Source: an uncultured Candidatus Saccharibacteria bacterium (GTDB lineage: Bacteria > Patescibacteriota > Doudnabacteria > UBA920). Taken from it: 64,000 nucleotides of DNA. Where the stretch lies: contig CAYGEJ010000003.1 in the NCBI GenBank assembly GCA_964348935.1, positions 7,287 through 71,286 on the forward strand, read 5' to 3'. Under the pieces are notes generated by a model. It did no database searches, was not told the origin of the DNA, and worked only from the letters and a program-made list of their open reading frames with translations. Positions 4,295 through 60,239 of the stretch are shown piece by piece. The position numbers and the translations under genes were made by a program. Numbering within the stretch: position 1 is the first letter of the stretch; each line of letters opens with the position of its first letter.

Positions 4295-7200
4295 TTAAGG
4301 AATTTCAATAATTATTGGTACGCCTTTTCCAGTGTTAAACAAGATTAAAGGGGTGGAGCTAATTGGAGTAGTGGCCGCAACTCCAGCGCTTCTATTATAA
4401 CCAATTATGAACGAGTTTTGGAATCTGGCGGTAGACTGTGTGTATCCGGTTGGTATTGCTAATTGAGCTTCAAAAGTTAAAGCTCTTCTTAGTCCACTTG
4501 GGACATTATTTGCTGTTCCGGTAAGATTAAATACCAAAGTCTGGTTTGGAACCGTTCCAAATGCACAATATCGATTATTACCACTAGGCGTACAAGAACT
4601 ACCAGCAACTGCTCCGTCGTAAGTTAACTTTATTCCATTATAATAGGCGTTAAAGTCGGACTTGGTTGAAGGTTTCACCAAATTTGTTAAGGTATCCCTG
4701 ATAGTAATATTGGAAGAAGTTCCAGTACCACCGTCATTACACAAGTTAATTTGGAAAGTTACCACGTCGTTAAGTTTCAAATTAACCCCACCTGATAACG
4801 GATCTGTGCCTCCACAATTATTACTAGAGTATGCTGTTCCATTTATTCCAATAATATCTTTATCGGAAGTATTTAAGTTACCTGAGCCACAAGCTAAAAC
4901 CGCAGTCGGATTAAGGTTAGCTCCGCTATTTGGCGCAACTTTGGCTGTCTCAACTCCGCCAACTACAGCAGAAACCCAATAGTAATAAATACCTGCAGAA
5001 ACTGAATTTGTCCAAGTTAATGAAGTTAAACCACTCTGTACTAAATCTCCAGCTACCGGCGCTGACCCGGTGGTATTTCTGTAGACGTTGTATGAGGTCG
5101 CACTCGATACTGCAGACCAATTTATAGTCATTTGTGCGCAGGTTGAATTATCCAAAGAAACAGTGGTTGGACCTGGACCCCCAGATGGTGCGGTAACCGT
5201 GTAGGTAACTGTTAAAGTTCGACTGGTTGGATTCGAAGCTGGATCAGTTACAGTAATTATACAAGTATGAGTACCTACACCTACCGTACTTGGGCTATCC
5301 ACAGTAATTGCAACAGGTGTATATTGACCGACCGGAGATGAAGGCACAGCTCCAGTAACTGCAGGACCGGCATTATTAACTCCATTTACCCTACACCAGC
5401 TTTGGTTGCTAATTTCAGAATGCCAGACATCCGCACTACCAGTACTAGTAATTTGCAAAATTTGCTGGGAAGGAGCTGGAGAACCCGTTACTCCACTGAA
5501 AGACATTGTAGTTGGATTAAGCACAAATGAAGCCTGTGGTGCAGCGGTAACATCAACCGTGTCAACAACATTGCTTTGAGCGCAGACATTTGAACCAGTT
5601 CCTGCATTTAAGCTACAGGTAACTGTTTGAGTTCCGACTGTTGCCCCAGCAGTACAGTTAAACACTGCGGTGGTTTTATCATAAGAAGCCCATGTACAAG
5701 TACCACCACCTGTGACACTTGCGGTAATAGCATCTATACCGCTGCTGTCGTAATCACAGCGTGTAGTAAACGCCCCTCCTGCGGTAACTGAGGATGGAGA
5801 AACACTGCTTCTGGTAGGATCCGGGTTGTAATGCAAAGGTTCGCAAACCGGACCACCTCCGGAAGCAGTGCAATAATAATGGATAGTTCCGTCCGAGTTT
5901 CTCTTGGTTTGCCATGTTCTATTATTTACATCTGTCCACCTAAAAGGCTGCCCCCATGACTTTGGCGAAACACCTAAGTTTGTCCATGTAATATCTGGTG
6001 CTGGTGGTACCCATCCTGTGTTGGTATTCCATTTCAAATAAGTATTATTGTCTGTACCATAGTGGTAAACACCCCAGGCTGCAGGCGTATCTGTAAATGG
6101 CGGGTAATTTGTTATACCATTTAGGAAATCATAAGAGGAATTCCAGACACAAGGATTACCTAGAGAATAATTACAAGATTGATAGTGTATATTATTTCCC
6201 CAACCCCTTACAACCACAGCGTTTGCCCAATTATTTTGAATATTAGGTGTATTTGGCAAATAAATTCCAACCGGCTGGCTTGGAGTAGAACCACCACCAG
6301 GAATCTCTCTCCAGGTACTGTCACAAATAGCTTGATAGGGATTTACAACAATATTCCTTGTAAAACTGTCATTGTTGGAAGTACTTCCACCCCCAAAACA
6401 AACTATTGAATGAGTATCAGAGGCGGTTACACCTCCCAAAGGAGCGCTTCCATTTGCAGGCCAAGTAGTACCCAAAGAAGTAGCACCTCTAAATATTTCA
6501 CAATTTGTAGCATTGGTAGATGTCCAGACAAGCCCGCCTGTACTATTAGCAACAACATTTATTGGTCCGTCTACTGGTGCGCTTTGAGGCACGGAATCTC
6601 CCCAACCTTTAATGTCTACAACGGGAGCAGGTGCAACATTATAATTAATTCCTGCATCTTGGGGGTTATTAGTTGCGTTGGAGTCTGAAATACGAATTCC
6701 GCAGTCGCTATGCGGACCCACACCCACTATATTTGGAGCGCTTACTGTAACTGTTACATTTTGCGAAGTCCCGGCAGGAACAGTACCAGAAACTGCGCTT
6801 AAATTACACCAAGTAGCAGCACCATTCCTACTAAAAGTCCAGTTTAAAGACGAGCTACCGGTATTGGCTATATTTAAAGTTTGACCTGCAGGAGCTGTAC
6901 CACCGAAAATTCCGTTGAATGTCAAGTTTGTTGGCGAAAGTACTATTGTAGGCTTAAGAATATTACGAGTAAAGCTATCGGTATTAGAGGTTAACCCAGT
7001 AGAGCCTGTACAAACTATAGAATGCGTGTCTGACGAACTTACACCTCCCAAAGGAGCACTTCCATTTGCAGGCCAAGTAGTGCCCAAAGAAGTAGCACCT
7101 CTAAATATTTCACAACTTGAGGCATTGGACGTCCATATCAGACCTCCGGAAGTCATAGGATTAACATTAATTGGTCCGTCTACTGGTGCGCTTTGAGGCA

Positions 7201-8752
7201 CAGAATCTCCCCAACCTTTAATGTCTACAATAGGGGCGCCTACAATATTACGAGTAAAGCTATCGGTATTAGAGGTTAACCCAGTAGAGCCTGTACAAAC
7301 TATAGAATGCGTGTCTGACGAACTTACACCTCCCAAAGGAGCACTTCCATTTGCAGGCCAAGTAGTGCCCAAAGAAGTAGCACCTCTAAATATTTCACAA
7401 CTTGAGGCATTGGACGTCCATATCAGACCTCCGGAAGTCATAGGATTAACATTAATTGGTCCGTCTACTGGTGCGCTTTGAGGCACAGAATCTCCCCAAC
7501 CTTTAATGTCTACAATAGGAGGACATGCAGAAAGAGCAACTGGAGCACTTGCTCGAGTTGCAGAAAAGTTTCCAGAGGGGTTATGTAAGGAGTCTACCCA
7601 ATAATAATAAGTAGCTCCCGTAGGAGGATTGTCTACAAAACTTGTTACGTTTCCAACAACAGCAAAGGGCGTTGCAGGCTGCGCATTAGTAGTATGTCTA
7701 TAAAGCCTATAAGCATTTGCGTCCTGACCAGTGCCCCAAGTTAAAGTAATAGTTCTACTTGGGCAAATCCCTGTTATTGTATTTAAAAATGCAGGAACAC
7801 CTGTAATAACACGTAAAACCGGGTAAACAGTTGCGGTAGGCCCGGCGGCATAACCAACCCCAGTAACCGTAATTGAATAGTTACCAACACCAAGACCTGA
7901 AGTATTATTAACGGTTAGGGTGGCGGTATCATGTCCAAATGTAGTTGGGTCAACTACATTTGGCTCTGGGTCGCCATCTGAATCATAACTTGTTAGGGTT
8001 GGAGTAATAGTACAGTTTGCTCCCGCAGGACATACTGCCGACAAAGTTACCTTATTATAAAATCCTCCAAGCATTCGTACAGTTAAAAAATAAGATGTAC
8101 TACCGCCTCTTGTAATTGTTCTTGAAGAAGGGTCAACTATTATTTGAATACCGGGAACTACAACTGGAGGACAATCGCTTGAACAGTTGGCATTATTTTC
8201 TCCGGAAGAACAATAGGAATCACCACAGTATGGACCAACACCACTAGTGGTACTGCAAGTAGGATCTACCGGTTGGCAACTTCCCGGCGAACCAGCAGAC
8301 AAATCACAGAAAGTGTCACAAACAATGCTAGGAGGATGTGGACAATCTGCATTAGTTGAACAACCGCTTACAGGGGCAGAAGAGCAGGTATTTTCCTGTA
8401 AGGTTTTTGCACAAACCGCTCCTGGAGCAGACTGGGTTCCAGTAAAAACGCCCGTTACATCATCGTAACAATTCAACGATGCTATTGCATATGAGTAGCT
8501 GCAAGACTCGCATGTAGAATAAATTTGCTGTCCTGCGGGAGTAAAAGTGCAAACACCAGTTAGCTCTCTGGTACTAGCATTAGGATCAGGACCAGAACCA
8601 CAACCTGTAGGGAGCCCTGAAATACAGTATGCATTTACTTGAAAAACATAAAAAAAAGAAAAAATAAATAAAAATACAACTAGAAATTTAAAATTAAATA
8701 TATAATTATTTAAGAATAAAAAACTGCTTCTTATTAAATTTTTAAAATTCAT
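4295..8752 (-). CDS. Giant secreted/cell-surface protein: signal peptide, Cys-rich N-terminal region, then Thr/Ser/Gly-rich beta-domain repeats (Fn3/Ig-like)
   Basis: 1485 aa. N-terminal hydrophobic segment ends ...QVNA. More than 40 Cys fall in the first 200 residues. A 95-aa module occurs 3 times. Confidence 0.7.
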   Translation of the reverse strand: MNFKNLIRSSFLFLNNYIFNFKFLVVFLFIFSFFYVFQVNAYCISGLPTGCGSGPDPNASTRELTGVCTFTPAGQQIYSTCESCSYSYAIASLNCYDDVTGVFTGTQSAPGAVCAKTLQENTCSSAPVSGCSTNADCPHPPSIVCDTFCDLSAGSPGSCQPVDPTCSTTSGVGPYCGDSYCSSGENNANCSSDCPPVVVPGIQIIVDPSSRTITRGGSTSYFLTVRMLGGFYNKVTLSAVCPAGANCTITPTLTSYDSDGDPEPNVVDPTTFGHDTATLTVNNTSGLGVGNYSITVTGVGYAAGPTATVYPVLRVITGVPAFLNTITGICPSRTITLTWGTGQDANAYRLYRHTTNAQPATPFAVVGNVTSFVDNPPTGATYYYWVDSLHNPSGNFSATRASAPVALSACPPIVDIKGWGDSVPQSAPVDGPINVNPMTSGGLIWTSNASSCEIFRGATSLGTTWPANGSAPLGGVSSSDTHSIVCTGSTGLTSNTDSFTRNIVGAPIVDIKGWGDSVPQSAPVDGPINVNPMTSGGLIWTSNASSCEIFRGATSLGTTWPANGSAPLGGVSSSDTHSIVCTGSTGLTSNTDSFTRNILKPTIVLSPTNLTFNGIFGGTAPAGQTLNIANTGSSSLNWTFSRNGAATWCNLSAVSGTVPAGTSQNVTVTVSAPNIVGVGPHSDCGIRISDSNATNNPQDAGINYNVAPAPVVDIKGWGDSVPQSAPVDGPINVVANSTGGLVWTSTNATNCEIFRGATSLGTTWPANGSAPLGGVTASDTHSIVCFGGGSTSNNDSFTRNIVVNPYQAICDSTWREIPGGGSTPSQPVGIYLPNTPNIQNNWANAVVVRGWGNNIHYQSCNYSLGNPCVWNSSYDFLNGITNYPPFTDTPAAWGVYHYGTDNNTYLKWNTNTGWVPPAPDITWTNLGVSPKSWGQPFRWTDVNNRTWQTKRNSDGTIHYYCTASGGGPVCEPLHYNPDPTRSSVSPSSVTAGGAFTTRCDYDSSGIDAITASVTGGGTCTWASYDKTTAVFNCTAGATVGTQTVTCSLNAGTGSNVCAQSNVVDTVDVTAAPQASFVLNPTTMSFSGVTGSPAPSQQILQITSTGSADVWHSEISNQSWCRVNGVNNAGPAVTGAVPSSPVGQYTPVAITVDSPSTVGVGTHTCIITVTDPASNPTSRTLTVTYTVTAPSGGPGPTTVSLDNSTCAQMTINWSAVSSATSYNVYRNTTGSAPVAGDLVQSGLTSLTWTNSVSAGIYYYWVSAVVGGVETAKVAPNSGANLNPTAVLACGSGNLNTSDKDIIGINGTAYSSNNCGGTDPLSGGVNLKLNDVVTFQINLCNDGGTGTSSNITIRDTLTNLVKPSTKSDFNAYYNGIKLTYDGAVAGSSCTPSGNNRYCAFGTVPNQTLVFNLTGTANNVPSGLRRALTFEAQLAIPTGYTQSTARFQNSFIIGYNRSAGVAATTPISSTPLILFNTGKGVPIIIEIP
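6959..7528. repeat. Two perfect tandem copies of a 285-bp unit (95 aa) inside the giant gene; a diverged third copy lies at roughly 6390-6690
   Basis: Identical text from 6959 and from 7244. The overlapping plus-strand ORFs 6915..7196 and 7221..7481 translate identically. Confidence 0.85.
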
Positions 8753-8915: not shown

Positions 8916-8958
8916 AATCTTGGTAGATCCTTACCAAGTCCAAGGAGGACTTGAAGCG

Positions 8959-11124
8959 ATGACAAAACTAACTCAATTGTTAGTGGTTTTGGCATTTGCA
9001 ACAACCGTTGCCCTTGCTCAACCCACCATAAAAGTGAGCGGATTGTTGGGGGAAGTTACCCCCATTCGGATGCTTACAAACAGCCGAGGAGACACTGTCG
9101 TTTCGGCAAGAACGAATACAAGCGCTGTTCTATTGTTGAAGCTAGCCAATCAAAGCGATTTCACAGTCGCCTACAATGACCAAGGCAAAACCGACAAGAT
9201 TGCACTGGGCGGGTCTGGTAACCCGTTTACAAATGACCTAAACATCCAGAATTTTGCCGTCTACTTCACCACGCTGGACAGCCTGGGAACACAACGAAAA
9301 ACTTGGGAAATGCCTTTATCGAGCGGGCCTGCGAAAATGCTCGGCGAATTGGGTATGGATGTAAAAGTCCTACTAGTAAATTTTAACTACAGTCCAGTCG
9401 TGAAAAAACTGGAACTGGTGTCTGCGGTCAGGGAAGATTCCAGTGGTCGAAAGCTGATGTATGCAATTATCACTGGATATCTCGGATACTTTTCTCTTCA
9501 ACCCGATGGCAGCTTCCGAGAAGTAATGCTTACCGGTCACAATCAGTATATTTTTCCACCATTTGGCGTCAAAGTCGGATCGACCGACATAGACTTCACC
9601 ATAATTGGTGGTGCGGGTATATTGGAGCTAAGTAATTACAACCTCCAAACCAAGACCCAAAAACTGGTCGCCAAAACAGGTAGCAGCGTCGGGAACGAAA
9701 GCTTGCAAACAATGGCGGCAAGTATGGACAGCTGGAAAAAAACGACATTCCGCTACAAAACTGCCAACGGCGGTCGGGTGGCACAGGTCGTGGACGGTCA
9801 GACGACTGTCCTTTACGCCAGCAGTCAAGCAGTCGACGACCACGCGGTCAACATCGCGCACCTCTTCGTGCGCCAAGGGAACCGTGTTCTCATGGTCGAC
9901 GGCTTGAACTCCGCAATCCCAATCGCCTCGGTCGGCGACACGTTCGCCGGCAAGACGATTCGGGAGTTCTCTCTTCCAACACTAACCGCGCACGGGTGCT
10001 CGGTGAACTTCATGGCAAAAACCGACACTACTTCAGTGTCCGGCTCGCCGCATCTGTTTACGACTGCCCTCCCCTGTGTTTTGCAGGTACCGACAACTGA
10101 AGTAAAAGTTGGCGAAGCGGTAATTCTTTATGGTCAGAACCTTGGAACGGTCAACGACACGAAAATCGTTGACGCCGATAATGGCAATGTGTATACTCCA
10201 AACCTCATTACAAATGATACGGTAGTGTTCACGGCGCCTCGAATTGGCACCCGGTTCAAGGTAAAGACTAAAGGTCTTACCAGCAACACCTTTACGGTGA
10301 GAATTAACTCTGCTGTCGTACCGGTGATTGACAAGATCACAACGGCAACCGGCACCACCGGCGCAGTAGCTCCGAATGGGTTGTTCACTGTTTGGGGACA
10401 GAATTTGTCTCCTATCGTGTCAACCCGGTTCAACTACTACAACCCTGGCATCACGGTAGCCACTCGGCTACCCCTGCCTCGGCTTCTCGCCGGTGCAAAA
10501 GTGCTTGTAAACGGAGCAGAAATTCCGCTCCTGTTTGGTACCTGCTACGAGAGTGGCATCTGTCAATTCAACGCACAAGCACCAAGCACGCTCTTTGGCA
10601 CCACCGCTACGGTGGAGGTCCAGCGCTACACCGACGTTAACGGACGAGCACTTGAGGCCACAAGCCAAAAGTTCACCGTCGCCGTCCAACCCGTTGCCCC
10701 TGTAGTGTTCAGCTTTCCGAAAAATGAAGAAACACCTGACATTTCGGAACTGACTGTAATGCAAAATGGCGACAAAGCCTACCAGCTTGTAACCAGAAGT
10801 ACGCCCATGAAAGGTGGGCAAACCGTCGTATTGTATTCTACTGGTTTCGGACTAACCAGTCCTGAAATTCCTGTCGGCGAAGCTGCTGGAGAAACCTACG
10901 CTCCAGTTACTAGCCAAGTGAAGACTTGGCTCAAGTACAGGACCGGAGGCAATGAGAAGACTGAAGAGGCGGGCAATGTGGCAGTAGCATCACCACAGTT
11001 TCCTGGGGTAAACCAGGTAAACGTCAAATTGCCTGTTGTCCTTCCCGACCCTGGCACCAAGACGTTTCTCGTCGTAAAAGTTGGAGAGGAGTATGTTCCT
11101 GATATAGAACTCCCTTACAACTAG
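8959..11124 (+). CDS. Secreted IPT/TIG-like repeat protein, compositionally foreign
   Basis: The start was moved to ATG 8959, which follows an AAGGAGGA Shine-Dalgarno. The signal peptide is MTKLTQLLVVLAFATTVALA. Motifs VILYGQNLGT and LFTVWGQNL repeat. The C-terminal ...GNVAVASPQFPGVNQVNVKLP resembles acidobacterial TIG-protein C-termini. A 60-nt spot count gives about 52% GC. Confidence 0.6.
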   Translation: MTKLTQLLVVLAFATTVALAQPTIKVSGLLGEVTPIRMLTNSRGDTVVSARTNTSAVLLLKLANQSDFTVAYNDQGKTDKIALGGSGNPFTNDLNIQNFAVYFTTLDSLGTQRKTWEMPLSSGPAKMLGELGMDVKVLLVNFNYSPVVKKLELVSAVREDSSGRKLMYAIITGYLGYFSLQPDGSFREVMLTGHNQYIFPPFGVKVGSTDIDFTIIGGAGILELSNYNLQTKTQKLVAKTGSSVGNESLQTMAASMDSWKKTTFRYKTANGGRVAQVVDGQTTVLYASSQAVDDHAVNIAHLFVRQGNRVLMVDGLNSAIPIASVGDTFAGKTIREFSLPTLTAHGCSVNFMAKTDTTSVSGSPHLFTTALPCVLQVPTTEVKVGEAVILYGQNLGTVNDTKIVDADNGNVYTPNLITNDTVVFTAPRIGTRFKVKTKGLTSNTFTVRINSAVVPVIDKITTATGTTGAVAPNGLFTVWGQNLSPIVSTRFNYYNPGITVATRLPLPRLLAGAKVLVNGAEIPLLFGTCYESGICQFNAQAPSTLFGTTATVEVQRYTDVNGRALEATSQKFTVAVQPVAPVVFSFPKNEETPDISELTVMQNGDKAYQLVTRSTPMKGGQTVVLYSTGFGLTSPEIPVGEAAGETYAPVTSQVKTWLKYRTGGNEKTEEAGNVAVASPQFPGVNQVNVKLPVVLPDPGTKTFLVVKVGEEYVPDIELPYN

Positions 11125-39859: not shown

Positions 39860-40249
39860 CTAACCACCCTTAGACTTTTCCTTAGCGTGTTTTATAAGGG
39901 CTTCCATTGCCTCATAACCGGCTCCTAACTCACTAGCTTTAATCAGATCTATATCACCACTTAACGCACCGGCTAAAACTTCTGGAGAAATGTCTTTATT
40001 CGGAATTGAATTTATGTTTTCTTGACTTCCTGAGTACAAATTTTCTTCAGACACAGGCGCTACCACTACCCCACTATCTATGGCTTTTATTTGTTCTCGT
40101 ATGTCCTCTGCTCGTTTCGGATCTAAATTTTTATCTCCCAACAATATCTCTAAATTTCTTTTTGTCTCATTTTGTTTAGCATTATCAACAAAACCTTCGG
40201 GTACAGGTTGGATTTCAATATTTTGTTGTTTAGATAATTCTGAAGCCAT
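39860..40249 (-). CDS. Hypothetical acidic protein
   Basis: 129 aa, 28 nt upstream of the ATPase. Confidence 0.35.
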   Translation of the reverse strand: MASELSKQQNIEIQPVPEGFVDNAKQNETKRNLEILLGDKNLDPKRAEDIREQIKAIDSGVVVAPVSEENLYSGSQENINSIPNKDISPEVLAGALSGDIDLIKASELGAGYEAMEALIKHAKEKSKGG

Positions 40250-40398
40250 AAATTACTTAACTATTATACCATATAATAACTAAATATTATACACCTTTTT
40301 TAACATTTTGTCAACCATTTTAGAAAAAATACTATAGCTATACATAATATAACTAAACAATGAAGATTTAATAAGTTTAATTTAAAGGGTCACTACTA

Positions 40399-44166: not shown

Positions 44167-44601
44167 TTATAAAATTTTACCGCCGGCTTTTTCAACAGCT
44201 TCTTTAACAGAGGCTGAAACCGGAAGTTTAATAGAAAGCTTCTTTTTGATTTCACCTTTAAGAACTTTAACTTTAGTAACAGCACCATCCACAATTCCTT
44301 TAGATTTTAAGGATTGCAAGTTAACTGTATCACCATCGTTAAAAATATTCAAACTTGAAAGATTAACAGCGGTAGCTTTGACATTCAAACCTCTAAAACC
44401 GCGGGATTTAGGCAACTGCCTTACAAGTGGTTGGCGTCCACCTTCAAAAGTCGCTGGCATTTTACTGTGACCAGTACGTTTGGTTTGACCCTTGTTACCA
44501 CGAGTGGAATAAGTACCTTTTCCGCTACCCAAACCACGACCGACAACTTTACGGCGATGTACTGATTTTGGATTTTTCTTGAGTTGATGTAATTTGATCA
44601 T
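44167..44601 (-). CDS. rplO: 50S ribosomal protein L15
   Basis: 144 aa. GRGLGSGKG motif. Confidence 0.9.
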   Translation of the reverse strand: MIKLHQLKKNPKSVHRRKVVGRGLGSGKGTYSTRGNKGQTKRTGHSKMPATFEGGRQPLVRQLPKSRGFRGLNVKATAVNLSSLNIFNDGDTVNLQSLKSKGIVDGAVTKVKVLKGEIKKKLSIKLPVSASVKEAVEKAGGKIL

Positions 44602-44692
44602 AAATGTTACGAATACGAATTATTACGAACTTACGAATTTTGCACAAACTTAGTTTCGTAAGTTCGTACATGTTCGTACTTCGTAAAGTTAA

Positions 44693-45193
44693 TTACTTTC
44701 TCATCTTTGCTAAGGTTTCTCTGCTCTTCATTTTACTAAAAGCAGCGAATACAGCTTTAACATTGTTAACTTTGTTGTTAGAACCAAGCATTTTTACCAC
44801 TACGTTCTTCACACCGGCTAACTCCATAACAGAGCGAACCGCACCTCCGGCAATAACACCAGAACCAGGTTTAGCAGGTTTCATCATTAAACTGCTGGAC
44901 TTATACTTGATATTTAATAAATGAGGTATAGTCTCGTTAACCAAAGGAAGGGTGACCATGTTTTTCTTAGCAGCATTTACAGCTTTATTCACACTTTCAG
45001 AAACATCAGCTCCTTTTTTTAAGCCCATTCCTACTTTACCTTTGTGGTCACCAATAACAACTAACGCACGAAAACGCATACGTTTACCACCAGCTACGAC
45101 ACGGGTAACACGCTTAACTTCCACCACTTTCTGGTCGAATTCGCTTTTTTCTCGGCCTTCGCCTTCACGTTGTTGTCTTCTTCGTTTTTCCAT
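44693..45193 (-). CDS. rpsE: 30S ribosomal protein S5
   Basis: 166 aa. Conserved VVAGGKRMRF region. Confidence 0.95.
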   Translation of the reverse strand: MEKRRRQQREGEGREKSEFDQKVVEVKRVTRVVAGGKRMRFRALVVIGDHKGKVGMGLKKGADVSESVNKAVNAAKKNMVTLPLVNETIPHLLNIKYKSSSLMMKPAKPGSGVIAGGAVRSVMELAGVKNVVVKMLGSNNKVNNVKAVFAAFSKMKSRETLAKMRK

Positions 45194-53701: not shown

Positions 53702-54025
53702 TTAACTCATCTTGATTTCTACATCTACTCCTGCCGGTAAGCTCAAATTTGTTAGAGCGTCTATTGTCTTTGGAGTTGCGGAGACTATATCTATTAATCT
53801 CTTATGGACACGCATTTCAAATTGCTCTCTACTGTCTTTGTGTACGAAAGTGGAACGAAGTACAGTGTACTTTGTTTTTTCGGTTGGCAATGGAATGGGC
53901 CCAGAAATAGTAGCGCCAGTTCGCTTGGCTGTTTCCACAATCTGTTTAGCACTTTGATCAATAAGCTTATGGTCATAAGCTCTTATCTTTATGCGGATTT
54001 TTGGTACTGCTACTTCCTTGTCCAT
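53702..54025 (-). CDS. rpsJ: 30S ribosomal protein S10
   Basis: 107 aa, [15 protein letters not shown]-terminus. Confidence 0.95.
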
Positions 54026-54105
54026 TTTGTTAAGGATCTTATTTATATTTAATTAAATTATGCGCTTTTTAAAAGGCTTTTATTCTTTTTCGAAGCACTT
54101 GCAAT

Positions 54106-54134
54106 ATTTTATACGATGTTTGTATATTTGTCAA
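54106..54134 (-). promoter_or_regulatory. Candidate sigma70-type promoter of the S10 operon (minus strand)
   Basis: The reverse complement gives TTGACA, a 17-nt spacer, then TAAAAT, about 80 nt upstream of rpsJ. Confidence 0.45.
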
Positions 54135-54171
54135 ATGGTTTATACCACAATTTCATATACAACTAACAACC

Positions 54172-54200
54172 TTGACAAAAGGCTTGAAAAGGTGTATAAT
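54172..54200 (+). promoter_or_regulatory. Near-consensus sigma70-type promoter driving the plus-strand island genes
   Basis: TTGACA (54172-54177), a 17-nt spacer, then TGtTATAAT with TATAAT at 54195-54200. Confidence 0.55.
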
Positions 54201-54316
54201 AAATATCTTAGTGTCAAAATTTAGTGAATATTTATTTGGATTTAATGGCTTTCCTATGCGGGAAAAACTATAAAATCTTAATCTGGTGCTCGCTAAACAA
54301 TCTCCTGGAGGAGAAA

Positions 54317-54487
54317 ATGAAACAAGACCACTCGAACCTTGATTGGTTCGTAAGGGATTTCATGACAGTGATCATAATCCTTTTCGTGTTGTTTGCCCCG
54401 ACCGTCTGGCTGACACTGGATACGGCCAACATTAAAGGAAATCCATCGGCCTACGTTTGGGAGCGAACCGTCGTCGCAATTAAATAG
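54317..54487 (+). CDS. 56-aa small membrane peptide (one TM)
   Basis: A GGAGGAG Shine-Dalgarno lies 6 nt upstream. Hydrophobic core VIIILFVLFAPTVWLTL. This is the shorter in-frame start within track ORF 54224..54487. Confidence 0.45.
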   Translation: MKQDHSNLDWFVRDFMTVIIILFVLFAPTVWLTLDTANIKGNPSAYVWERTVVAIK

Positions 54488-54509
54488 CGATGGCGAATAA
54501 AACAAAAAT

Positions 54510-54557
54510 GGAAGCGTGTCGGCTCCCCCCACGCGCTTCCACCAATTTTCTTTTTTT
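54510..54557 (+). terminator. Intrinsic terminator after the small peptide gene
   Basis: GGAAGCGTG...CACGCGCTTCC stem followed by a T7 run. Confidence 0.6.
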
Positions 54558-54671
54558 ACTACTTACTACACAAGCTAATATTTCTTCTAGCAAAATTGTT
54601 TACAAATCCTTGTAACCAGTTTTGTCAGAAGGATAGCAGTATCAAATTCTTCGACAACAGGGAGAATCCCC

Positions 54672-54968
54672 ATGCAAATAGTTCTGGACCAAAAAGGCTT
54701 CTACGAAGCCGCACTGCTCGGCCTCGAGGCGCAAAAAACGCGCATCGAGAAAATGATCACCGGCATTAAGCAACTCGCCGGCAAAAAACCGGTAACGACG
54801 AACATCGCCGAGGCGGCCAAAGTCGCCATCGGCGCCCGCAAAAAGCACGCCAACGGTGCCGGCGCCAAACGCAAAAAACGGAACCTGAGCCCCGAAGCTC
54901 GCCAGCGTATCGCCGATGCGCAAAAGAAGCGCTGGGCGGCGTTCCGGAAGGACGGCGCGGCGGCCTAA
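54672..54968 (+). CDS. 98-aa basic Lys/Arg/Ala-rich protein, possibly nucleic-acid-binding
   Basis: Spot counts of about 55% GC. AGGGAGA Shine-Dalgarno. Helical N-terminus, then GARKKHANGAGAKRKKRNLSPEARQRIADAQKKRWAAFRK. Confidence 0.5.
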   Translation: MQIVLDQKGFYEAALLGLEAQKTRIEKMITGIKQLAGKKPVTTNIAEAAKVAIGARKKHANGAGAKRKKRNLSPEARQRIADAQKKRWAAFRKDGAAA

Positions 54969-55013
54969 AGGAGGAATATAGCGAAATATGATGTTTCGCT
55001 CAAACAAACACAC

Positions 55014-55050
55014 GCGGTAGAAGACACTATGTCTTTTACCGCTATTTTTT
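55014..55050 (+). terminator. Intrinsic terminator after the basic-protein gene; its stem overlaps the stop of a 10-codon mini-ORF
   Basis: GCGGTAGAAGACA-CTA-TGTCTTTTACCGC stem followed by a T-run. Confidence 0.5.
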
Positions 55051-55109
55051 ATATTTGCTAAATTTCTATAAAATCTCTAGACTACTATAAAATCACTAAG
55101 GGGGAAACG

Positions 55110-55484
55110 ATGCCTAAACACACCGTCTTCTTTATTTTTTTCGCCCTAGGCCTTAATGCCCAGCAAGCGAGCGAGAGTAAGTTCCGTTGTAGCGACGGGA
55201 ACGTAACTTGGAAACCCGGCAACACGCCGAGCACAAAGGATCAAGGGTCCGCGCAAACGGAGTGCTGCAAGCTCCGCACCAACTACCAAAACTACGGCAA
55301 AGACCAAAAAGACCTGGAGGCATGCAAAAATATACCTCCGGACAAAGAACGTCTTGACCTGTTCTATGTAGAGTGTCGTATGTTCAATATGCCGTGGTGC
55401 TCCTATCTACTCCCCAAATCAATGGGAAAGGACTACTCCACCAAACCCAAACCTCCTGCAAAGGCCACAAAGAAACTCAAGTAA
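55110..55484 (+). CDS. Small secreted Cys-rich protein (8 Cys), Lys-rich C-terminal tail
   Basis: 124 aa. AAGGGGG Shine-Dalgarno. Signal peptide MPKHTVFFIFFALGLNAQQA. The GC is elevated. Confidence 0.5.
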   Translation: MPKHTVFFIFFALGLNAQQASESKFRCSDGNVTWKPGNTPSTKDQGSAQTECCKLRTNYQNYGKDQKDLEACKNIPPDKERLDLFYVECRMFNMPWCSYLLPKSMGKDYSTKPKPPAKATKKLK

Positions 55485-55491
55485 ATCCACC

Positions 55492-55530
55492 GGTCGGGAT
55501 ACCTCTCAGGTTCCCCGACCGCATTTTTTT
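55492..55530 (+). terminator. Intrinsic terminator after the Cys-rich protein gene
   Basis: GGTCGGG...CCCGACC stem followed by a T8 run. Confidence 0.6.
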
Positions 55531-55606
55531 AATTAAACTATTTTTCTCAATGCTAATTGCATTCTCTCCTCTATGTATAAATAGAAATTTTATTTACACA
55601 TCTGCC

Positions 55607-55647
55607 AAAACAAAACTCCTCCCGATAAAATCGGGAGGAGTTTTTCT
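55607..55647. terminator. Bidirectional intrinsic terminator, serving tuf on the minus strand
   Basis: AAACTCCTCCCGAT-AAAA-TCGGGAGGAGTTT with flanking A/T tracts. Confidence 0.65.
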
Positions 55648-55673
55648 ATAAACTATTAGCTAACAGCTATAAG

Positions 55674-56855
55674 CTATTTTAAAATTTTTGTTACAACACC
55701 AGCACCTACAGTGTGCCCACCTTCTCTGATGGCGAATTTACCTTTTTCTTCTAAAGCTACTGGGGTAATTAACTTAACTACCAATTTTACAGTATCTCCA
55801 GGCATAACCATTTCTTGGCCTTCTGGCAAAGTAATGTCACCGGTAACGTCGGTTGTTCTAATGTAGAATTGTGGCTTATAACCTTTAAAGAATGGAGTAT
55901 GACGTCCGCCTTCTTCTTTGGTCAAAACATAAATTTCAGTTTCAAATTCTGTATGTGGGTTAATGGAACCTGGTTTACATAATACTTGTCCGCGTTCTAC
56001 TTCATCTTTCTTAGTACCACGAAGCAAAATACCAGCATTGTCCCCTGCCATACCGCTATCTAACTGTTTATTGAACATTTCAATACCAGTTACAACAGTT
56101 TTTGCTGTTGGCTTAAGACCAACGATTTCAATTTCTTCGTTAATCTTAATTTGACCTCTTTCAATTCTACCTGTGACTACAGTTCCTCTTCCTTCAATTG
56201 AGAAAATGTCTTCGATAGGCATTAAGAAAGGTTGATCAACTTCACGAGTAGGATCAGGGATGTAAGTATCTAAAGTATCAACCAATTTTAAAATAGTTGC
56301 TTCATATTCAGCATCGCCTTCCAAAGCTTTCAAAGCAGAACCACGAATAATTGGAGTATCTTTTCCAGGGAAATCATACTTTGTCAAAAGATCTCTAATT
56401 TCTTCTTCTACTAAGTCCAACAGTTCAGCATCCTGAACCATATCACACTTGTTCATATAAACAACAATGAACTTAACACCTACCTGGTTAGCAAGCAAAA
56501 TATGCTCACGAGTTTGAGGCATTGGACCGTCAGCGGCGGATACCACCAAAATAGCACCATCCATTTGAGCAGCACCAGTTATCATGTTTTTGATATAGTC
56601 AGCGTGACCAGGACAGTCTACGTGAGCGTAGTGTCTCTTGGCGCTTTCGTATTCAACGTGAGCGGTGTTAATGGTAATACCACGGGCTTTTTCTTCAGGA
56701 GCGTTATCGATAGAATCGTATGCTCTTGCTTTTGCTCCTCCAGTTTTGGAAAGCACAGTAGTAATAGCAGCTGTCAAAGTGGTTTTACCGTGGTCAACGT
56801 GACCAATGGTTCCAACGTTGACGTGTGTCTTACTACGGTCAAATTTATCAGCCAT
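55674..56855 (-). CDS. tuf: Elongation factor Tu
   Basis: 393 aa. [14 protein letters not shown] and NKCD G-motifs. Confidence 0.97.
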
Positions 56856-57040
56856 TTGTTTTAGCCTTTCTTTCTCCTGCCTAGGCAGGAGGATTTGCTC
56901 GAGAAACCCTAGGTCTTAAGCCCTGTAGATATTTGGCACAAGACCAAGGGTTTATCTCTTTTTTCCCTTACGGAATCCAGAGCAAAAATTAATTATTTAC
57001 ATAAATATCCGCCAAAATGTTATTAAGGCGAACAAGATAT

Positions 57041-57069
57041 ATTTTAAAGATATTTAATCTAATTGTCAA
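57041..57069 (-). promoter_or_regulatory. Candidate sigma70-type promoter for tuf with a roughly 185-nt leader
   Basis: The reverse complement gives TTGACA (57064-57069), a 17-nt spacer, then TAAAAT (57041-57046). Confidence 0.4.
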
Positions 57070-57077
57070 ACCGGAGC

Positions 57078-57665
57078 TTATTTCGTAAATTTAAAAGTAT
57101 TTAAAATTTGCTCTAAAACTTCCATTGGCTTTGTTTGGTCTATTTCTGTTTTTGTACCTGGCTCATAATTAGAAATATTGGCAGTATGAATGGTTAAAGC
57201 CAACTCAAAGCAACTGTTACCGTTAAGTGTTCTATAAATTGTGGCATCGTATAAATTTCCAGCTCCTACACCAGAAGTTTGACCTACATAATAGGTAATG
57301 CCGTTAATTACCTTCGTAGATGTCATTGGCTTGCCAGTATCCTGGTTCATAAAACACAGCGCACTATCTTTAGCATAGGCAGTACTTATTGTAAAAGCTG
57401 AATCTATAAAATTAGTTTCTGGATAACTATTTTTTAAAGGTTGAATTTGGACAATTGGCTCAGAAAGGGTTGCGTAAGATGCTTGGGTAAAGCCAAAGTC
57501 TTGTGGATACTTAAATTCAAAGCTATACGGAATAAAAATATAAGTAGACCAATTATCTATTAGTTCTTGATTATTAATTGGCGTTGGATTTTCTACGACT
57601 GGCGATGTTTTATTACAACTTACTGCTAAAAACGCAACTGCTAGTAACAAATATATTTTTTTCAT
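57078..57665 (-). CDS. Putative lipoprotein
   Basis: 195 aa. Signal peptide with lipobox LAVSC. Confidence 0.5.
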   Translation of the reverse strand: MKKIYLLLAVAFLAVSCNKTSPVVENPTPINNQELIDNWSTYIFIPYSFEFKYPQDFGFTQASYATLSEPIVQIQPLKNSYPETNFIDSAFTISTAYAKDSALCFMNQDTGKPMTSTKVINGITYYVGQTSGVGAGNLYDATIYRTLNGNSCFELALTIHTANISNYEPGTKTEIDQTKPMEVLEQILNTFKFTK

Positions 57666-57721
57666 ATTTTTTTCTTTAATGATTTATCTGCGTTATCTGT
57701 CTTAATCTGCGTATCTGTGGT

Positions 57722-58120
57722 TTATATATCATCTAAATCTAATTTTGGACCTTCAAAGTCAAAAGAAGGGTCTATAACTTCTTCTCTCAAATCAACCGCT
57801 CCGGGACGCGTGATTGGATGACCGTCAAACCGAGTAAGATCTGGCGGATGACTAATAACAGTTGGTCCTTTTTCTACTTGTTTATTTGAAATTGCAATAT
57901 CTGATACTACCGGAGTAATATCTTCAGTTAATTGCGCGTTTAATATTTCCTTATTAATTTTTTCAACATCTAGCATTTGCTTCTGTAGTTTACCAATAAG
58001 TAGTTTTTGATACTCCTCTACAGGCATAATTACCAAACTTGCATTCCCCTGCTCGTCCAATATAAAAAACTTTCCTCCATCCGCCTTCGCTAAATTAATA
58101 AGGTCATTTAAATTGTTCAT
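57722..58120 (-). CDS. Hypothetical acidic protein
   Basis: 132 aa, no motif recognised. Confidence 0.35.
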   Translation of the reverse strand: MNNLNDLINLAKADGGKFFILDEQGNASLVIMPVEEYQKLLIGKLQKQMLDVEKINKEILNAQLTEDITPVVSDIAISNKQVEKGPTVISHPPDLTRFDGHPITRPGAVDLREEVIDPSFDFEGPKLDLDDI

Positions 58121-58533
58121 AAGTTTATAAATATTAAGCGTGTCATTCCAGACTCGCCTGCCCTCCTTTGGAGAGATCCGGAATCCATGAATATTCTATA
58201 TTAAGTTTCCCTCCACCAGCTGGCGGATTATCGAGAATGACAAATCAATAACCTCCCTTAATCCCTCCTCTGCAAGGAGGGAAATTACTGCAGTTGCAGT
58301 TATTCCTCTCCCTTTTAGGGGAGAAGGTTAGCCTGCCCGCCGTAGCCTTGGCGAAGGAGGGGTGAGGGTACTTAATCCTCTAACTCTCTTAATTATACTC
58401 GCCCGCTCGGGCATTTACAACTACTATAATTTTTGATATTCTACAGTGTCGTCACTAGCGCCGGCTAAACGACCCAATGCAAACCCGCTTTGAAGTTATT
58501 GGACTAGAATGACCGGTTGAGAGAGGAGGAAAT

Positions 58534-58755
58534 ATGGCACTTGAAGATTCAACAGCTAACACACCCCAAGACGAATCAGATCAAGCAAAACAAGCAAGGA
58601 GAATGCTTCTCCAAGAATTCTTGCTTGCATCAACAGAAAACCCAAGTCTCATCGCTGGGTTTTTTACCGAACCTATCCTTCAAGAAATAGTTGATCGAAT
58701 AACAAAGCGATCAAGACTTCTTACACAGCTGAAAACGGCCTTAAAACGCCGCTAG
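58534..58755 (+). CDS. 73-aa acidic/helical small protein
   Basis: A GAGGAGGA Shine-Dalgarno lies 5 nt upstream. Elevated GC. Followed by a T-rich terminator-like tract. Confidence 0.4.
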   Translation: MALEDSTANTPQDESDQAKQARRMLLQEFLLASTENPSLIAGFFTEPILQEIVDRITKRSRLLTQLKTALKRR

Positions 58756-58913
58756 CACTCTCGCCCAACGTCTACCGACCGCGGGCTTTTTTATTTGCCT
58801 ATTTACATTGCATAATTAATTTGTTATTCTGTACTGTCATCCTGGAACCGGCAGGATAGATACGTCCCAATGTAGGACGGAGTTAGTTTAGTACCGATAG
58901 TTAGGAGGAAACT

Positions 58914-59141
58914 ATGAGAAGATACATCATACCTTTGTCAGGGTTAGTGGTTTGCCTTGAATTATTGTATTGGGAGGCAACCCATAGAGACATGATTCCA
59001 CAGTTGTCTGACGGCATCAAAATAACGATGCTGATCATGACTCTCTTGGGGATGGGGGTGTTCGTATTCGGCATTGCCAAACCGCTGTGGAATGACTCCT
59101 GGAAGTACTGGGAGAAACGATTGAGAGGAGCGACGAAATGA
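58914..59141 (+). CDS. 75-aa two-TM membrane peptide
   Basis: TAGGAGGAA Shine-Dalgarno. Hydrophobic helices LVVCLELLYW and ITMLIMTLLGMGVFVFGIA. Its stop overlaps the next start (ATGA). Confidence 0.45.
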   Translation: MRRYIIPLSGLVVCLELLYWEATHRDMIPQLSDGIKITMLIMTLLGMGVFVFGIAKPLWNDSWKYWEKRLRGATK

Positions 59142-59359
59142 CCGCACGACACAAGTGCACTGTCTCCGGAAGAGTGCCTGTTATGCAAGCACGACGGAAT
59201 TCAAACATTATCCCATTTGGGGAAACCGTCGGTCTAGAAGGACCCACATGGAAAGGAGTACGCAAGACCGTCCCCATTCTACTATACGAAGGGAAAGATA
59301 AGTACGACACTGCATCTATCCCCATCGCATTCTGCCCGTTCTGCGGGAAAAAACTCTAA
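59138..59359 (+). CDS. 73-aa zinc-ribbon-like small protein (CxxS...CPFC)
   Basis: Start ATGA coupled to the upstream gene, preceded by GAGAGGAG. The Cys pair FCPFCGKK is at the C-terminus. Confidence 0.4.
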   Translation: MTARHKCTVSGRVPVMQARRNSNIIPFGETVGLEGPTWKGVRKTVPILLYEGKDKYDTASIPIAFCPFCGKKL

Positions 59360-59377
59360 CCAAAACCTCGGCGCAGT

Positions 59378-59436
59378 GCCCAGAGCCAGCGGTTCAATTA
59401 ATACCTGAACTTCTGGCGCTGGGCTTTTTTATTTTT
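59378..59436 (+). terminator. Intrinsic terminator after the coupled pair
   Basis: GCCCAGAGCCAG...CTGGCGCTGGGC stem followed by a T6AT5 run. Confidence 0.6.
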
Positions 59437-59463
59437 AATTCTGGTTGATCACGATTTTGATAT

Positions 59464-59502
59464 AAAAAAATTTGAGCCGTCCACCTAAAAGGCAGACGGC
59501 TC
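59464..59502 (-). terminator. Intrinsic terminator for the minus-strand gene 59514..60065
   Basis: GAGCCGTC...GACGGCTC stem preceded by an A7 run. Confidence 0.5.
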
Positions 59503-59513
59503 ATGCGCCAGGA

Positions 59514-60065
59514 TTAATCGAGAGTGATTTTTGACAGGGGGTAGGGATGTACGTATCGGTAACCTTCCTTAACATCTAAGAATTCGAACCTGACCCAGCT
59601 GCCTTTGAACCAACCACTACTTGTGGATAGGAATGTTCTGCTGGAATCGCCAATTCCCACCGTTCCGCAAGAAATCTCACAACGGGAATTCAGGGGTGGC
59701 CAAGGCAAACCATTTTCTGTGAACTCGACGCTGTTTTGGTTAGGTTCTTGTTGTTCCCATTCTAAGATGGTGCATACAACCGGAAACCGAGCTTCCAGGA
59801 TCCTTACCACAACCCTATCAAGATTACCCGGCACATCAAAAAGAAATTCGACGCGTTGTCCCACCTTCAAGTTGTGTGGGTAAATACCTCTATCCCTAAC
59901 CACCTTGGGCGTCTTATCCGAAGACGTAAGCACCAACCACAACCCTTGCAACCCAATAATGCTTTTGCATGGCTTAAATGGGAAAATTATAATAAAAAAC
60001 CCTGCAGCTAAAATAGAAAGGACAGCGACTACAATCATCACGATAGCCTGACTTAAAATCTTCAT
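59514..60065 (-). CDS. N-terminally membrane-anchored extracytoplasmic protein
   Basis: The start was set at the internal Met (MKIL...), which follows a GGAGGAGAAGAG Shine-Dalgarno; the track ORF begins 8 codons earlier at a non-ATG start. One TM. The body has moderately elevated GC. Confidence 0.45.
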   Translation of the reverse strand: MKILSQAIVMIVVAVLSILAAGFFIIIFPFKPCKSIIGLQGLWLVLTSSDKTPKVVRDRGIYPHNLKVGQRVEFLFDVPGNLDRVVVRILEARFPVVCTILEWEQQEPNQNSVEFTENGLPWPPLNSRCEISCGTVGIGDSSRTFLSTSSGWFKGSWVRFEFLDVKEGYRYVHPYPLSKITLD

Positions 60066-60130
60066 CTCTTCTCCTCCAGTTTGTATCAAAAAAACACTTT
60101 ATAACAATTTCGCGCTTATGTCAATTGTAA

Positions 60131-60162
60131 AAGGGCTAACCCCATATGGGGTTAGCCCTTTA
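60131..60162 (-). terminator. Hairpin 3' of fusA
   Basis: AAAGGGCTAACCCC-ATAT-GGGGTTAGCCCTTT is a perfect 14-bp stem. The T-tract on the minus strand is short. Confidence 0.45.
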
Positions 60163-60239
60163 TCTGTTTTATCTGTTTTAATCCGCGCCTGCCTGCCAAA
60201 GATTGAGGCATAACCGCTTGCGGGCAGGCATCCGCGGTC

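Follow-up and report, generated by a model that had tools for sequence, protein, structure and literature searches.

Patescibacteria, the genomes of which are tiny, are thought to live on other cells, and to our knowledge almost nothing is known about the proteins that they export. Here, we describe a cassette of three small open reading frames (ORFs) between the tuf and rpsJ genes of a Patescibacteria-like bacterium, found in a 64,000-nucleotide stretch of DNA (hereafter, the window) that is part of ENA contig ERZ27247837 k141_813485. Nearly all genes of the window, which includes the str-S10-spc ribosomal cluster, lie on the minus strand, among them rpsJ (53702..54025) and tuf (55674..56855). 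The cassette occupies the 1648-bp spacer between these two genes and is read from the plus strand, encoding a 56-amino acid (aa) single-pass membrane peptide (ORF1, 54317..54487), a 98-aa basic protein (ORF2, 54672..54968) and a 124-aa protein with a signal-peptide-like N-terminus (ORF3, 55110..55484). An earlier annotation made from the letters of the DNA (the original prediction) had put the spacer at 1.65 kb, as we measure it, and had proposed an acquired accessory module.

The tuf-rpsJ junction is also interrupted in Enterobacterales, by bfd-bfr, an arrangement present in our sample in Sodalis (L023). Such interruptions likewise place extra genes between tuf and rpsJ, but they match their host in composition and have known functions, whereas the cassette is antisense to its flanks, foreign in composition and uncharacterized. 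Phage morons offer a second comparison: as in these, each gene of the cassette has its own terminator (three private terminators in all), the first promoter is strong (12 of 12 consensus positions, ahead of ORF1) and the composition is unlike that of the surroundings, but the cassette lies outside any prophage, flanked by rpsJ and tuf rather than by adjacent phage genes, and has no phage homologues. Genomic islands and gene exchange are documented in Patescibacteria, mostly between members of the group, which are themselves the source of most of the transfers that the group receives (Gios et al. 2025, PMC12455944). The cassette resembles the islands of that study in its atypical composition, its accessory genes of unknown function, the streamlined candidate-phyla-radiation genome that carries it and the likelihood of a donor from the same phylum; it differs in measuring only ~1.5 kb, in having no mobility genes, in occupying a str-S10 junction slot in common with its nearest relative, and in drawing all three genes from undescribed families.

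We conclude, with moderate confidence, that the junction is a variable slot, specific to this lineage, in which small accessory genes are housed, and that their present alleles were imported from a GC-richer genome. On this reading the cassette is a small horizontal import; it is not an artefact, nor does it represent a system of a new type. The locus yields three candidate genes, real as judged by purifying selection and equipped with strong expression signals; the ORF2 and ORF3 families are both undescribed, and even the str-S10 operon junction can serve as a replaceable accessory-gene slot in Patescibacteria. No general principle is altered; gene exchange in this group is already documented.

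Foreign composition and conservation of the cassette genes

The GC contents of ORF1, ORF2 and ORF3 are 0.47, 0.60 and 0.49, respectively, in keeping with the 48–60% given for the coding parts by the original prediction. The anomaly sits at synonymous sites, so amino-acid content does not explain it: GC content at third codon positions (GC3) is 0.61, 0.73 and 0.60, against a mean of 0.287 (standard deviation 0.039, maximum 0.41) for 63 host genes, which corresponds to z-scores of 8–11. Codon usage, which the original prediction had suggested comparing with the contig, is also foreign to this genome. Given the amino acids, the codon choice of the cassette is fitted worst by the host's own table (−2.20 bits per codon, compared to −1.35 to −1.69 for host genes), and much better by mid-GC Patescibacteria or high-GC tables (−1.59 to −1.73). 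Both the composition and the codon usage of the cassette are therefore atypical in the manner of a genomic island. Intergenic GC is 0.28–0.40 in the cassette and 0.29 in the host, whose 1-kb windows lie mostly at 0.31–0.40; these values replace the single figure of about 32% offered earlier for the host.

Two short contigs from unrelated samples, L089 (SRR12901042) and L084 (SRR32051697), overlap by 73 nt and together represent a diverged copy of the cassette. In this copy, an ORF1-like gene (73 aa) and a terminator are followed by an ORF2-like gene (100 aa), hairpins, a secreted 158-aa gene that is extra relative to the window cassette, a terminator, an ORF3-like gene (122 aa) and a final terminator. 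The ratios of nonsynonymous to synonymous substitution rates (dN/dS) between the two copies are 0.26, 0.20 and 0.23 for ORF1, ORF2 and ORF3, at synonymous divergences (dS) of 2.2, 1.4 and 0.8, respectively, and GC3 in the diverged copy is 0.51–0.63. All three ORFs are thus under purifying selection and are genuine genes, which answers the doubt over their conservation that the original prediction had raised against itself. The control regions are better conserved between the copies than synonymous sites, and terminator stems show compensatory changes.

The host is Patescibacteria-like, in that the top matches of both tuf and rpsJ are Patescibacteria metagenome-assembled genomes. In addition, the gene for ribosomal protein L15 comes 91 nt after that for S5, L30 being absent from between the two (44167..45193, minus strand), an order reported for candidate-phyla-radiation bacteria and one that supports this placement. 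An assembly chimera, in which DNA of a GC-richer organism had been joined into a low-GC contig, would account for the abrupt shift in composition, but we regard it as barely credible. The rpsJ-cassette-tuf segment is 100% identical in the ENA contig and two Logan assemblies (L002 and L003), which were compared across both junctions and derive from different runs and different assemblers, making a chimeric join very unlikely. Moreover, the intergenic parts are AT-rich like those of the host, the promoter is of host style, and an independent genome from another study (L004) shows the same slot design.

The tuf-rpsJ slot and the origin of its cargo

Across 114 loci, the median gap between tuf and rpsJ is ~130 bp, confirming that the two genes are normally adjacent, and 15 loci (13%) have gaps of at least 500 bp. 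The only close relative that we found, L004 (CAYOXN010000002.1; tuf 88%, rpsJ 93%, GC 0.48), has a spacer of 1645 bp that is laid out as in the window. Diverging from the promoter of rpsJ, a perfect TTGACA-17-TATAAT promoter precedes a ~130-nt leader and a 109-aa gene, which is 30% identical to ORF2 of the window and retains each of the ten positions that are invariant in the ORF2 family; a terminator, a 207-aa gene resembling tetratricopeptide repeat (TPR) proteins, a further terminator and the tuf terminator follow. The GC3 of the L004 cassette (0.56–0.60) is host-like (0.55). Scans of GTDB and JGI revealed no genome nearer than L004, the best JGI metagenome rpsJ reaching 79%. The TPR-like gene of L004 was also compared with the TPR gene beside an ORF3-family gene in L192, and the two proved unrelated.

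The presence of a slot of the same design in L004 shows that the window cassette is not a unique insertion. Members of the clade share the slot but differ in its cargo and in how the composition of that cargo compares with the host. The proposal of an acquired accessory module stands in substance, given the foreign codon usage, the real genes, the terminator after each of them and the adjacency of tuf and rpsJ in most related genomes, but not as a singular event, given the filled slot of L004 and the 13% of loci that are expanded. The original prediction had looked to related genomes for an empty site, and had named the same genes at the same place with the same composition as the sign of ancestry. 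Adjacency of tuf and rpsJ is indeed the rule, yet the slot of the nearest relative is occupied, and by a related gene that differs in its composition relative to the host and in its partners.

The ORF3 family extends this picture to other loci, and every genomic context found for it looks Patescibacteria-like. Its members have GC3 values of 0.59–0.71 regardless of whether their neighbours lie at 0.27, 0.40 or 0.55–0.68: 0.60 in the window (neighbours 0.29), 0.59 in L188 (~0.27), 0.61 in L194 (~0.40), 0.63 in L191/L192 (0.52–0.66) and 0.71 in L195 (0.68). On the two lower-GC contigs other than the window, L188 and L194, the ORF3-family gene runs antisense to its neighbours, which are rpsO on one contig and sigma-70 and SecDF on the second. 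Its promoter there is near-consensus with TG, and it has a ~120-nt leader and its own terminator, a design that the window cassette shares. The pattern is most simply read as low-GC genomes having repeatedly imported such genes from members of the phylum that are richer in GC, which agrees with the predominance of within-group transfer (PMC12455944); a constraint that keeps ORF3-family genes GC-rich is possible.

Under the variable-slot reading, the tuf terminator and the promoter of the S10 operon mark the limits of the slot, which has its own consensus sigma-70 promoter facing away from rpsJ and at present holds three separately terminated genes, for a membrane peptide, a basic two-helix protein and a secreted six-cysteine protein. 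The donor of ORF3, ORF1 and the cassette as a whole would most likely be another Patescibacterium, and ORF2 has a deeper link to high-GC genomes, in which its family is common and of which one is labelled Bryobacteraceae. Import would have proceeded by allelic replacement or illegitimate insertion rather than by a mobile element. The first promoter is expected to transcribe ORF1, and ORF2 and ORF3 could be expressed from conserved, non-consensus upstream regions or by read-through.

Several observations weigh against this account. The donor is a postulated one; the family, structure and defence-system searches for the three proteins gave no match, and the functions proposed for all three derive from architecture. 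The first promoter looks host-like, having AAAAGGTGTATAAT in common with a host promoter. The diverged copy has reached dS values of 0.8–2.2 without GC decay, so the composition could be held by constraint rather than reflect recent arrival, and the flanks, host and position of that copy lie beyond its two contigs. Finally, neither the 3′ end of tuf nor the 5′ end of rpsJ has raised GC3, meaning that homologous replacement through the flanks leaves no footprint.

Alternatively, the genes could be native, inherited vertically with GC-rich synonymous sites under selection for mRNA structure, stability or translation, an explanation that we consider unlikely but the least so of the alternatives. 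It would accommodate the ORF2-family gene in the same slot of L004, the GC3 still maintained in the diverged copy (0.51–0.63 at dS 0.8–2.2), the ORF3-family GC3 of ~0.6–0.7 in hosts ranging from 0.27 to 0.68, and the host-like first promoter. However, none of 63 host genes exceeds a GC3 of 0.41, and ORF2 is 46–55% identical to proteins of genomes with 61–67% GC (87% to one of them at the DNA level over 77 nt), whereas its identity to its positional counterpart in L004 is only 30%. The L004 cassette simply has the composition of its own host. We know of no precedent for selection that keeps three unrelated small genes 30–45 points above the genomic GC3. A further, rather improbable reading is that ORF3-family genes, sometimes accompanied by ORF1- or ORF2-like partners, form a mobile secreted host-interaction set that circulates among Patescibacteria. 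Their donor-like GC3 of ~0.6–0.7 would then reflect turnover faster than decay toward host composition; they would occupy insulated intergenic slots, several of them beside strongly expressed translation genes (tuf-rpsJ, rpsO, rpsB-tsf), and would bring control elements of their own. These would be a promoter close to consensus, an attenuator in the form of a structured leader or mini-ORF, and the cassette-specific 10-mer CTATAAAATC, for which ORF2 may be the reader.

The presence of a small membrane peptide beside a small secreted protein that is cationic and disulfide-rich, the variable content among relatives and the cassette-specific CTATAAAATC ahead of ORF1 and ORF3 would also suit a toxin-immunity or bacteriocin-like module. 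The secreted antimicrobial or contact effector would then be ORF3, with ORF1 as its membrane immunity peptide and ORF2 as the regulator. The toxin/immunity set and the host-interaction effectors raised by the original prediction are guesses, and a toxin-immunity module seems improbable to us: toxin-immunity pairs are usually tightly co-transcribed, whereas the cassette genes are terminated separately, ORF3-family genes occur elsewhere without ORF1-like or ORF2-like partners, and none of the three ORFs is homologous to any known component of a toxin, immunity or defence system, with no significant match in Pfam, NCBIfam, PHROGs or PADLOC. Highly improbable is a remnant of a phage moron or other mobile element, which had been suggested by the original prediction and which the promoter-gene-terminator design and foreign composition recall. 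The C-terminal motif of ORF2 does occur in 16 IMG/VR contigs, and there are weak PHROG matches to phrog_1709 (expectation value (E) = 0.005) and phrog_314 (E = 0.023), but in the majority of these contigs the match lies mainly in the C-terminal part of ORF2, and ORF3 and two conserved intergenic motifs are absent from IMG/VR. Searches with tblastn gave no match for ORF2 or ORF3 in 50,697 phage records, nor for ORF2 in 72,556 plasmid records. The mobility hallmarks of a genomic island are likewise lacking from the locus: the window contains no tRNA, the cassette has no meaningful flanking direct repeats, and no ORF has a significant Pfam or PHROG match, so none is an integrase or transposase. 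We therefore set aside the suggestion of a mobile, moron-like cassette, and retain import into a variable slot as the favoured account.

The three protein families

ORF2 is very basic, as originally described, with 23 Lys and Arg residues against 8 Asp and Glu and a net charge of ~ +15. Its chain starts with a long helix, continues through a disordered linker rich in Ala and Pro, and ends in a basic helix (KRNLSPEARQRIADAQKKRWAAFRK); in the AlphaFold model, helices 7–35 and 74–97 have predicted local distance difference test (pLDDT) scores above 90, and residues 41–62 are disordered. The protein belongs to an uncharacterized family of ~100 members or more, which are 46–62% identical over their full length and share an invariant C-terminal S..IA.AQ..RW signature. 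Many members are 46–55% identical to ORF2. The four family contigs that we examined (L085–L088) have 61–67% GC, and one close member in another record is labelled Bryobacteraceae (phylum Acidobacteriota). In all four contigs the family gene is the one immediately after dtd (D-aminoacyl-tRNA deacylase), separated from it by 4 nt, which, together with the Patescibacteria loci, indicates that the family adjoins translation-related genes in both settings. The DNA of ORF2 itself is 87% identical over 77 nt to one relative from a high-GC genome.

Searches with ORF2 gave no significant match in Pfam, NCBIfam, PHROGs or PADLOC, nor in PDB sequence-profile or fold searches, none of 31 family members matched Pfam, and a literature search with the motif returned nothing significant. 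A NUMOD3/homing-endonuclease motif at the C-terminus was considered and rejected, as the sole match was phrog_314 at E = 0.023, with none in Pfam. In architecture, which is the only level of this comparison, ORF2 is reminiscent of the H-NS/Lsr2/MvaT class: it has ~100 aa, begins with a helix that hints at self-association and ends, beyond a flexible linker, in a basic segment of a nucleic-acid-binding kind, and its two-repeat relatives bear AT-hook-like GRPRK. In contrast to that class, it has no sequence or fold homology, and its C-terminus is a single basic helix with the invariant signature. By its architecture, ORF2 may dimerize through the first helix and bind nucleic acid through the basic helix, and it is a putative dimeric nucleic-acid-binding regulator or nucleoid- or ribosome-associated protein.

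ORF3 combines an N-terminal signal-peptide-like segment with six cysteines and a Lys/Pro-rich tail and, judging by its sequence, is probably secreted by the Sec pathway. The original prediction of a 124-aa secreted protein thus holds in length and in the signal-like N-terminus, but not in its count of eight cysteines. One close homologue was found, the orthologue P0101 (70% identical). An exhaustive profile search added a small, distant family (P0119–P0125) of 160–275 aa, which shares the signal peptide, the six invariant cysteines and the Lys/Pro-rich tail, and most members of which have a helical insert of ~45 aa that separates two cysteines which in ORF3 of the window stand next to each other. 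An exhaustive search of representatives yielded four true distant relatives; two ankyrin/TPR repeat proteins from the ORF3 search were spurious and discarded. Although the AlphaFold core has pLDDT scores of 80–93, a fold search gave no relative, and there was no significant match in Pfam, NCBIfam, PHROGs or PADLOC. Its architecture suggests that ORF3 could be exported via Sec, form three disulfides and act as a putative envelope or host-surface protein.

ORF1 is the one-transmembrane peptide that had been described, with a single hydrophobic span at residues 18–32 and a GGAGGAG Shine-Dalgarno sequence. Its only known relative is the 73-aa orthologue in L089, and it has no significant match in Pfam, NCBIfam, PHROGs or PADLOC. 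By its architecture, ORF1 would sit in the membrane, as a putative membrane partner.

We also observed a 5′ leader shared by four ORF3-family genes at other loci (L194:1543-1670, L188:7879-8003, L195:101-225 and L192:3444-3526). It comprises a Shine-Dalgarno-like GGAGG, the start of a short upstream ORF, GGAAGC and, after these, a long hairpin (ACUUCCAG...CUGGAAGU). The RNAalifold prediction for it has 24 pairs, of which 6 show compensatory changes, among only 4 sequences. This leader is a candidate for an undescribed cis-regulatory element. A covariance model built from it had no match in the window (best E = 0.63, at another position). Near the ORF3-family islet of L188 lies a 157-aa ORF of unknown family (L188:6373-6846, minus strand), with a GC3 of 0.50 compared to ~0.27 for its host.

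Control elements and neighbouring regions

A consensus promoter was detected ahead of ORF1 only, the scan finding none ahead of ORF2 or ORF3. This promoter (TTGACA-17-TATAAT, 54172..54200, plus strand) matches the sigma-70 consensus at 12 of 12 positions and points away from rpsJ, as had been predicted, although the TGn of the proposed extended −10 element is out of register. Perfect sites of this kind occur twice in 64 kb, and sites with at most one mismatch seven times, compared to 0.92 expected. The cassette promoter has AAAAGGTGTATAAT, comprising the end of the spacer and the −10 block, in common with the other perfect site (40286..40314, minus strand), which lies upstream of a 129-aa ORF (39860..40249) without a family match. 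Near-perfect equivalents precede the accessory genes of L004, L188 and L194. Back to back with the cassette promoter is a promoter-like site facing rpsJ (TTGACA-17-TAAAAT, 54106..54134, minus strand), which matches the consensus at 11 of 12 positions and is probably the promoter of the S10 operon, divergent from that of the cassette; L004 is weakly similar in DNA around it (54074–54137).

Between promoter and ORF1 lies a 5′ leader of ~116 nt (54201..54316, plus strand), which folds as a long imperfect hairpin (z = −2.3, hairpin z-scores here and below being relative to shuffled sequences) and has a 21-nt core (54245..54265, ATGGCTTTCCTATGCGGGAAA) that is identical in L089. The 10-mer CTATAAAATC occurs once ahead of ORF1 (54268) and twice ahead of ORF3 (55066 and 55085); these three copies, all inside the cassette, are the only ones in 64 kb, compared to 0.29 expected, and we would speculate that the 10-mer is a site for a cassette-encoded regulator. 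Upstream of ORF2, a conserved region (54585..54650, plus strand) is ~90% identical to L089, compared to ~68% in the adjoining coding DNA. It contains the palindrome TTACAA-N4-TTGTAA (54600..54615), the arms of which are kept in L089 with an altered spacer; the number of such palindromes in the window is not above chance. The region upstream of ORF3 (55043..55109, plus strand) is nearly identical in L084, with ~55 nt at almost 100% identity compared to 77% in coding DNA.

Each gene is preceded by a Shine-Dalgarno sequence and followed by a hairpin with a T-run (−19.7 to −20.7 kcal/mol), so that both of the corresponding statements in the original prediction are borne out; across all terminators of the spacer, folding energies range from −19.7 to −24.4 kcal/mol and z-scores from −5.4 to −8.5. 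The ORF1 terminator (54509..54541, plus strand; −19.9 kcal/mol, z = −5.7) is conserved in L089, as is that of ORF2 (55014..55042, plus strand; −19.7 kcal/mol, z = −8.4), which has a 13-bp stem and a T-run. The ORF3 terminator (55491..55521, plus strand; −20.7 kcal/mol, z = −5.4) shows compensatory changes in L084, where the GGTCGGG/CCCGACC stem is replaced by GACCGGG/CCCGGTC. A further, bidirectional terminator (55612..55644, both strands) is built as a perfect inverted repeat of 15 nt with an A-run on one side and a T-run on the other, and the folding energies of the two strands are −23.9 and −24.4 kcal/mol. Transcription of tuf stops here on the minus strand, as would any read-through out of the cassette on the plus strand, and this convergent terminator protects tuf.

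Ahead of the ORF2 terminator, the segment 54970..55020 (plus strand) comprises a AGGAGGAAT box, a small hairpin (54980..55000; −8.6 kcal/mol, z = −3.9) and a 10-codon mini-ORF (54988..55020). As originally described, the mini-ORF has its stop codon in the stem of the terminator, but its peptide, frame and stop position are not conserved in L089, and the spacing from box to ATG is long (13–16 nt). L089 keeps the box and the hairpin, the latter with a compensatory change from GCGAAA/TTTCGC to GCGAAC/GTTCGC, and the region may be a regulatory device rather than a conserved peptide. It resembles leader-peptide attenuators of the erm/cat and trp types in having a Shine-Dalgarno-like box and a short ORF that runs into a terminator stem upstream of a gene, but differs from them in the lack of conservation of the peptide and stop, in the 13–16-nt spacing, and in that no alternative anti-terminator pairing is shown. 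In Rfam, the leaders and intergenic regions gave no match at the gathering threshold, only terminator-like noise up to E = 1.

The fusA-tuf junction of the window is also interrupted, by ~3.4 kb (56856..60239), and several other Patescibacteria loci have 1–4.6 kb between these genes. In the window, this spacer holds a lipoprotein-like 195-aa ORF with a host-like GC3 of 0.23 (57078..57665), a 132-aa ORF with a weakly RelB/Phd-like N-terminus (57722..58120), a GC-rich stretch with short ORFs only (58200–59400, GC 0.43–0.52), one of them a 73-aa ORF that ends in CPFCGKKL (59138..59359, GC3 0.50), and a 191-aa membrane ORF (59514..60089, GC3 0.46). A second island of foreign composition is formed by a 734-aa ORF at 8920..11124, which lies on the plus strand, opposite to nearly all genes, and has a GC content of 0.50 and a GC3 of 0.53 compared to 0.29 in the host; searches with it gave weak, sub-threshold Pfam matches (DUF6645, DP-EP) and no PADLOC match. 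GC is also raised, to 0.43, in a 1485-aa ORF (4295..8752, minus strand) with a weak BACON_2 match, but here the excess comes from second codon positions (0.57, with a GC3 of 0.27) and is due to amino-acid composition, not foreign origin.

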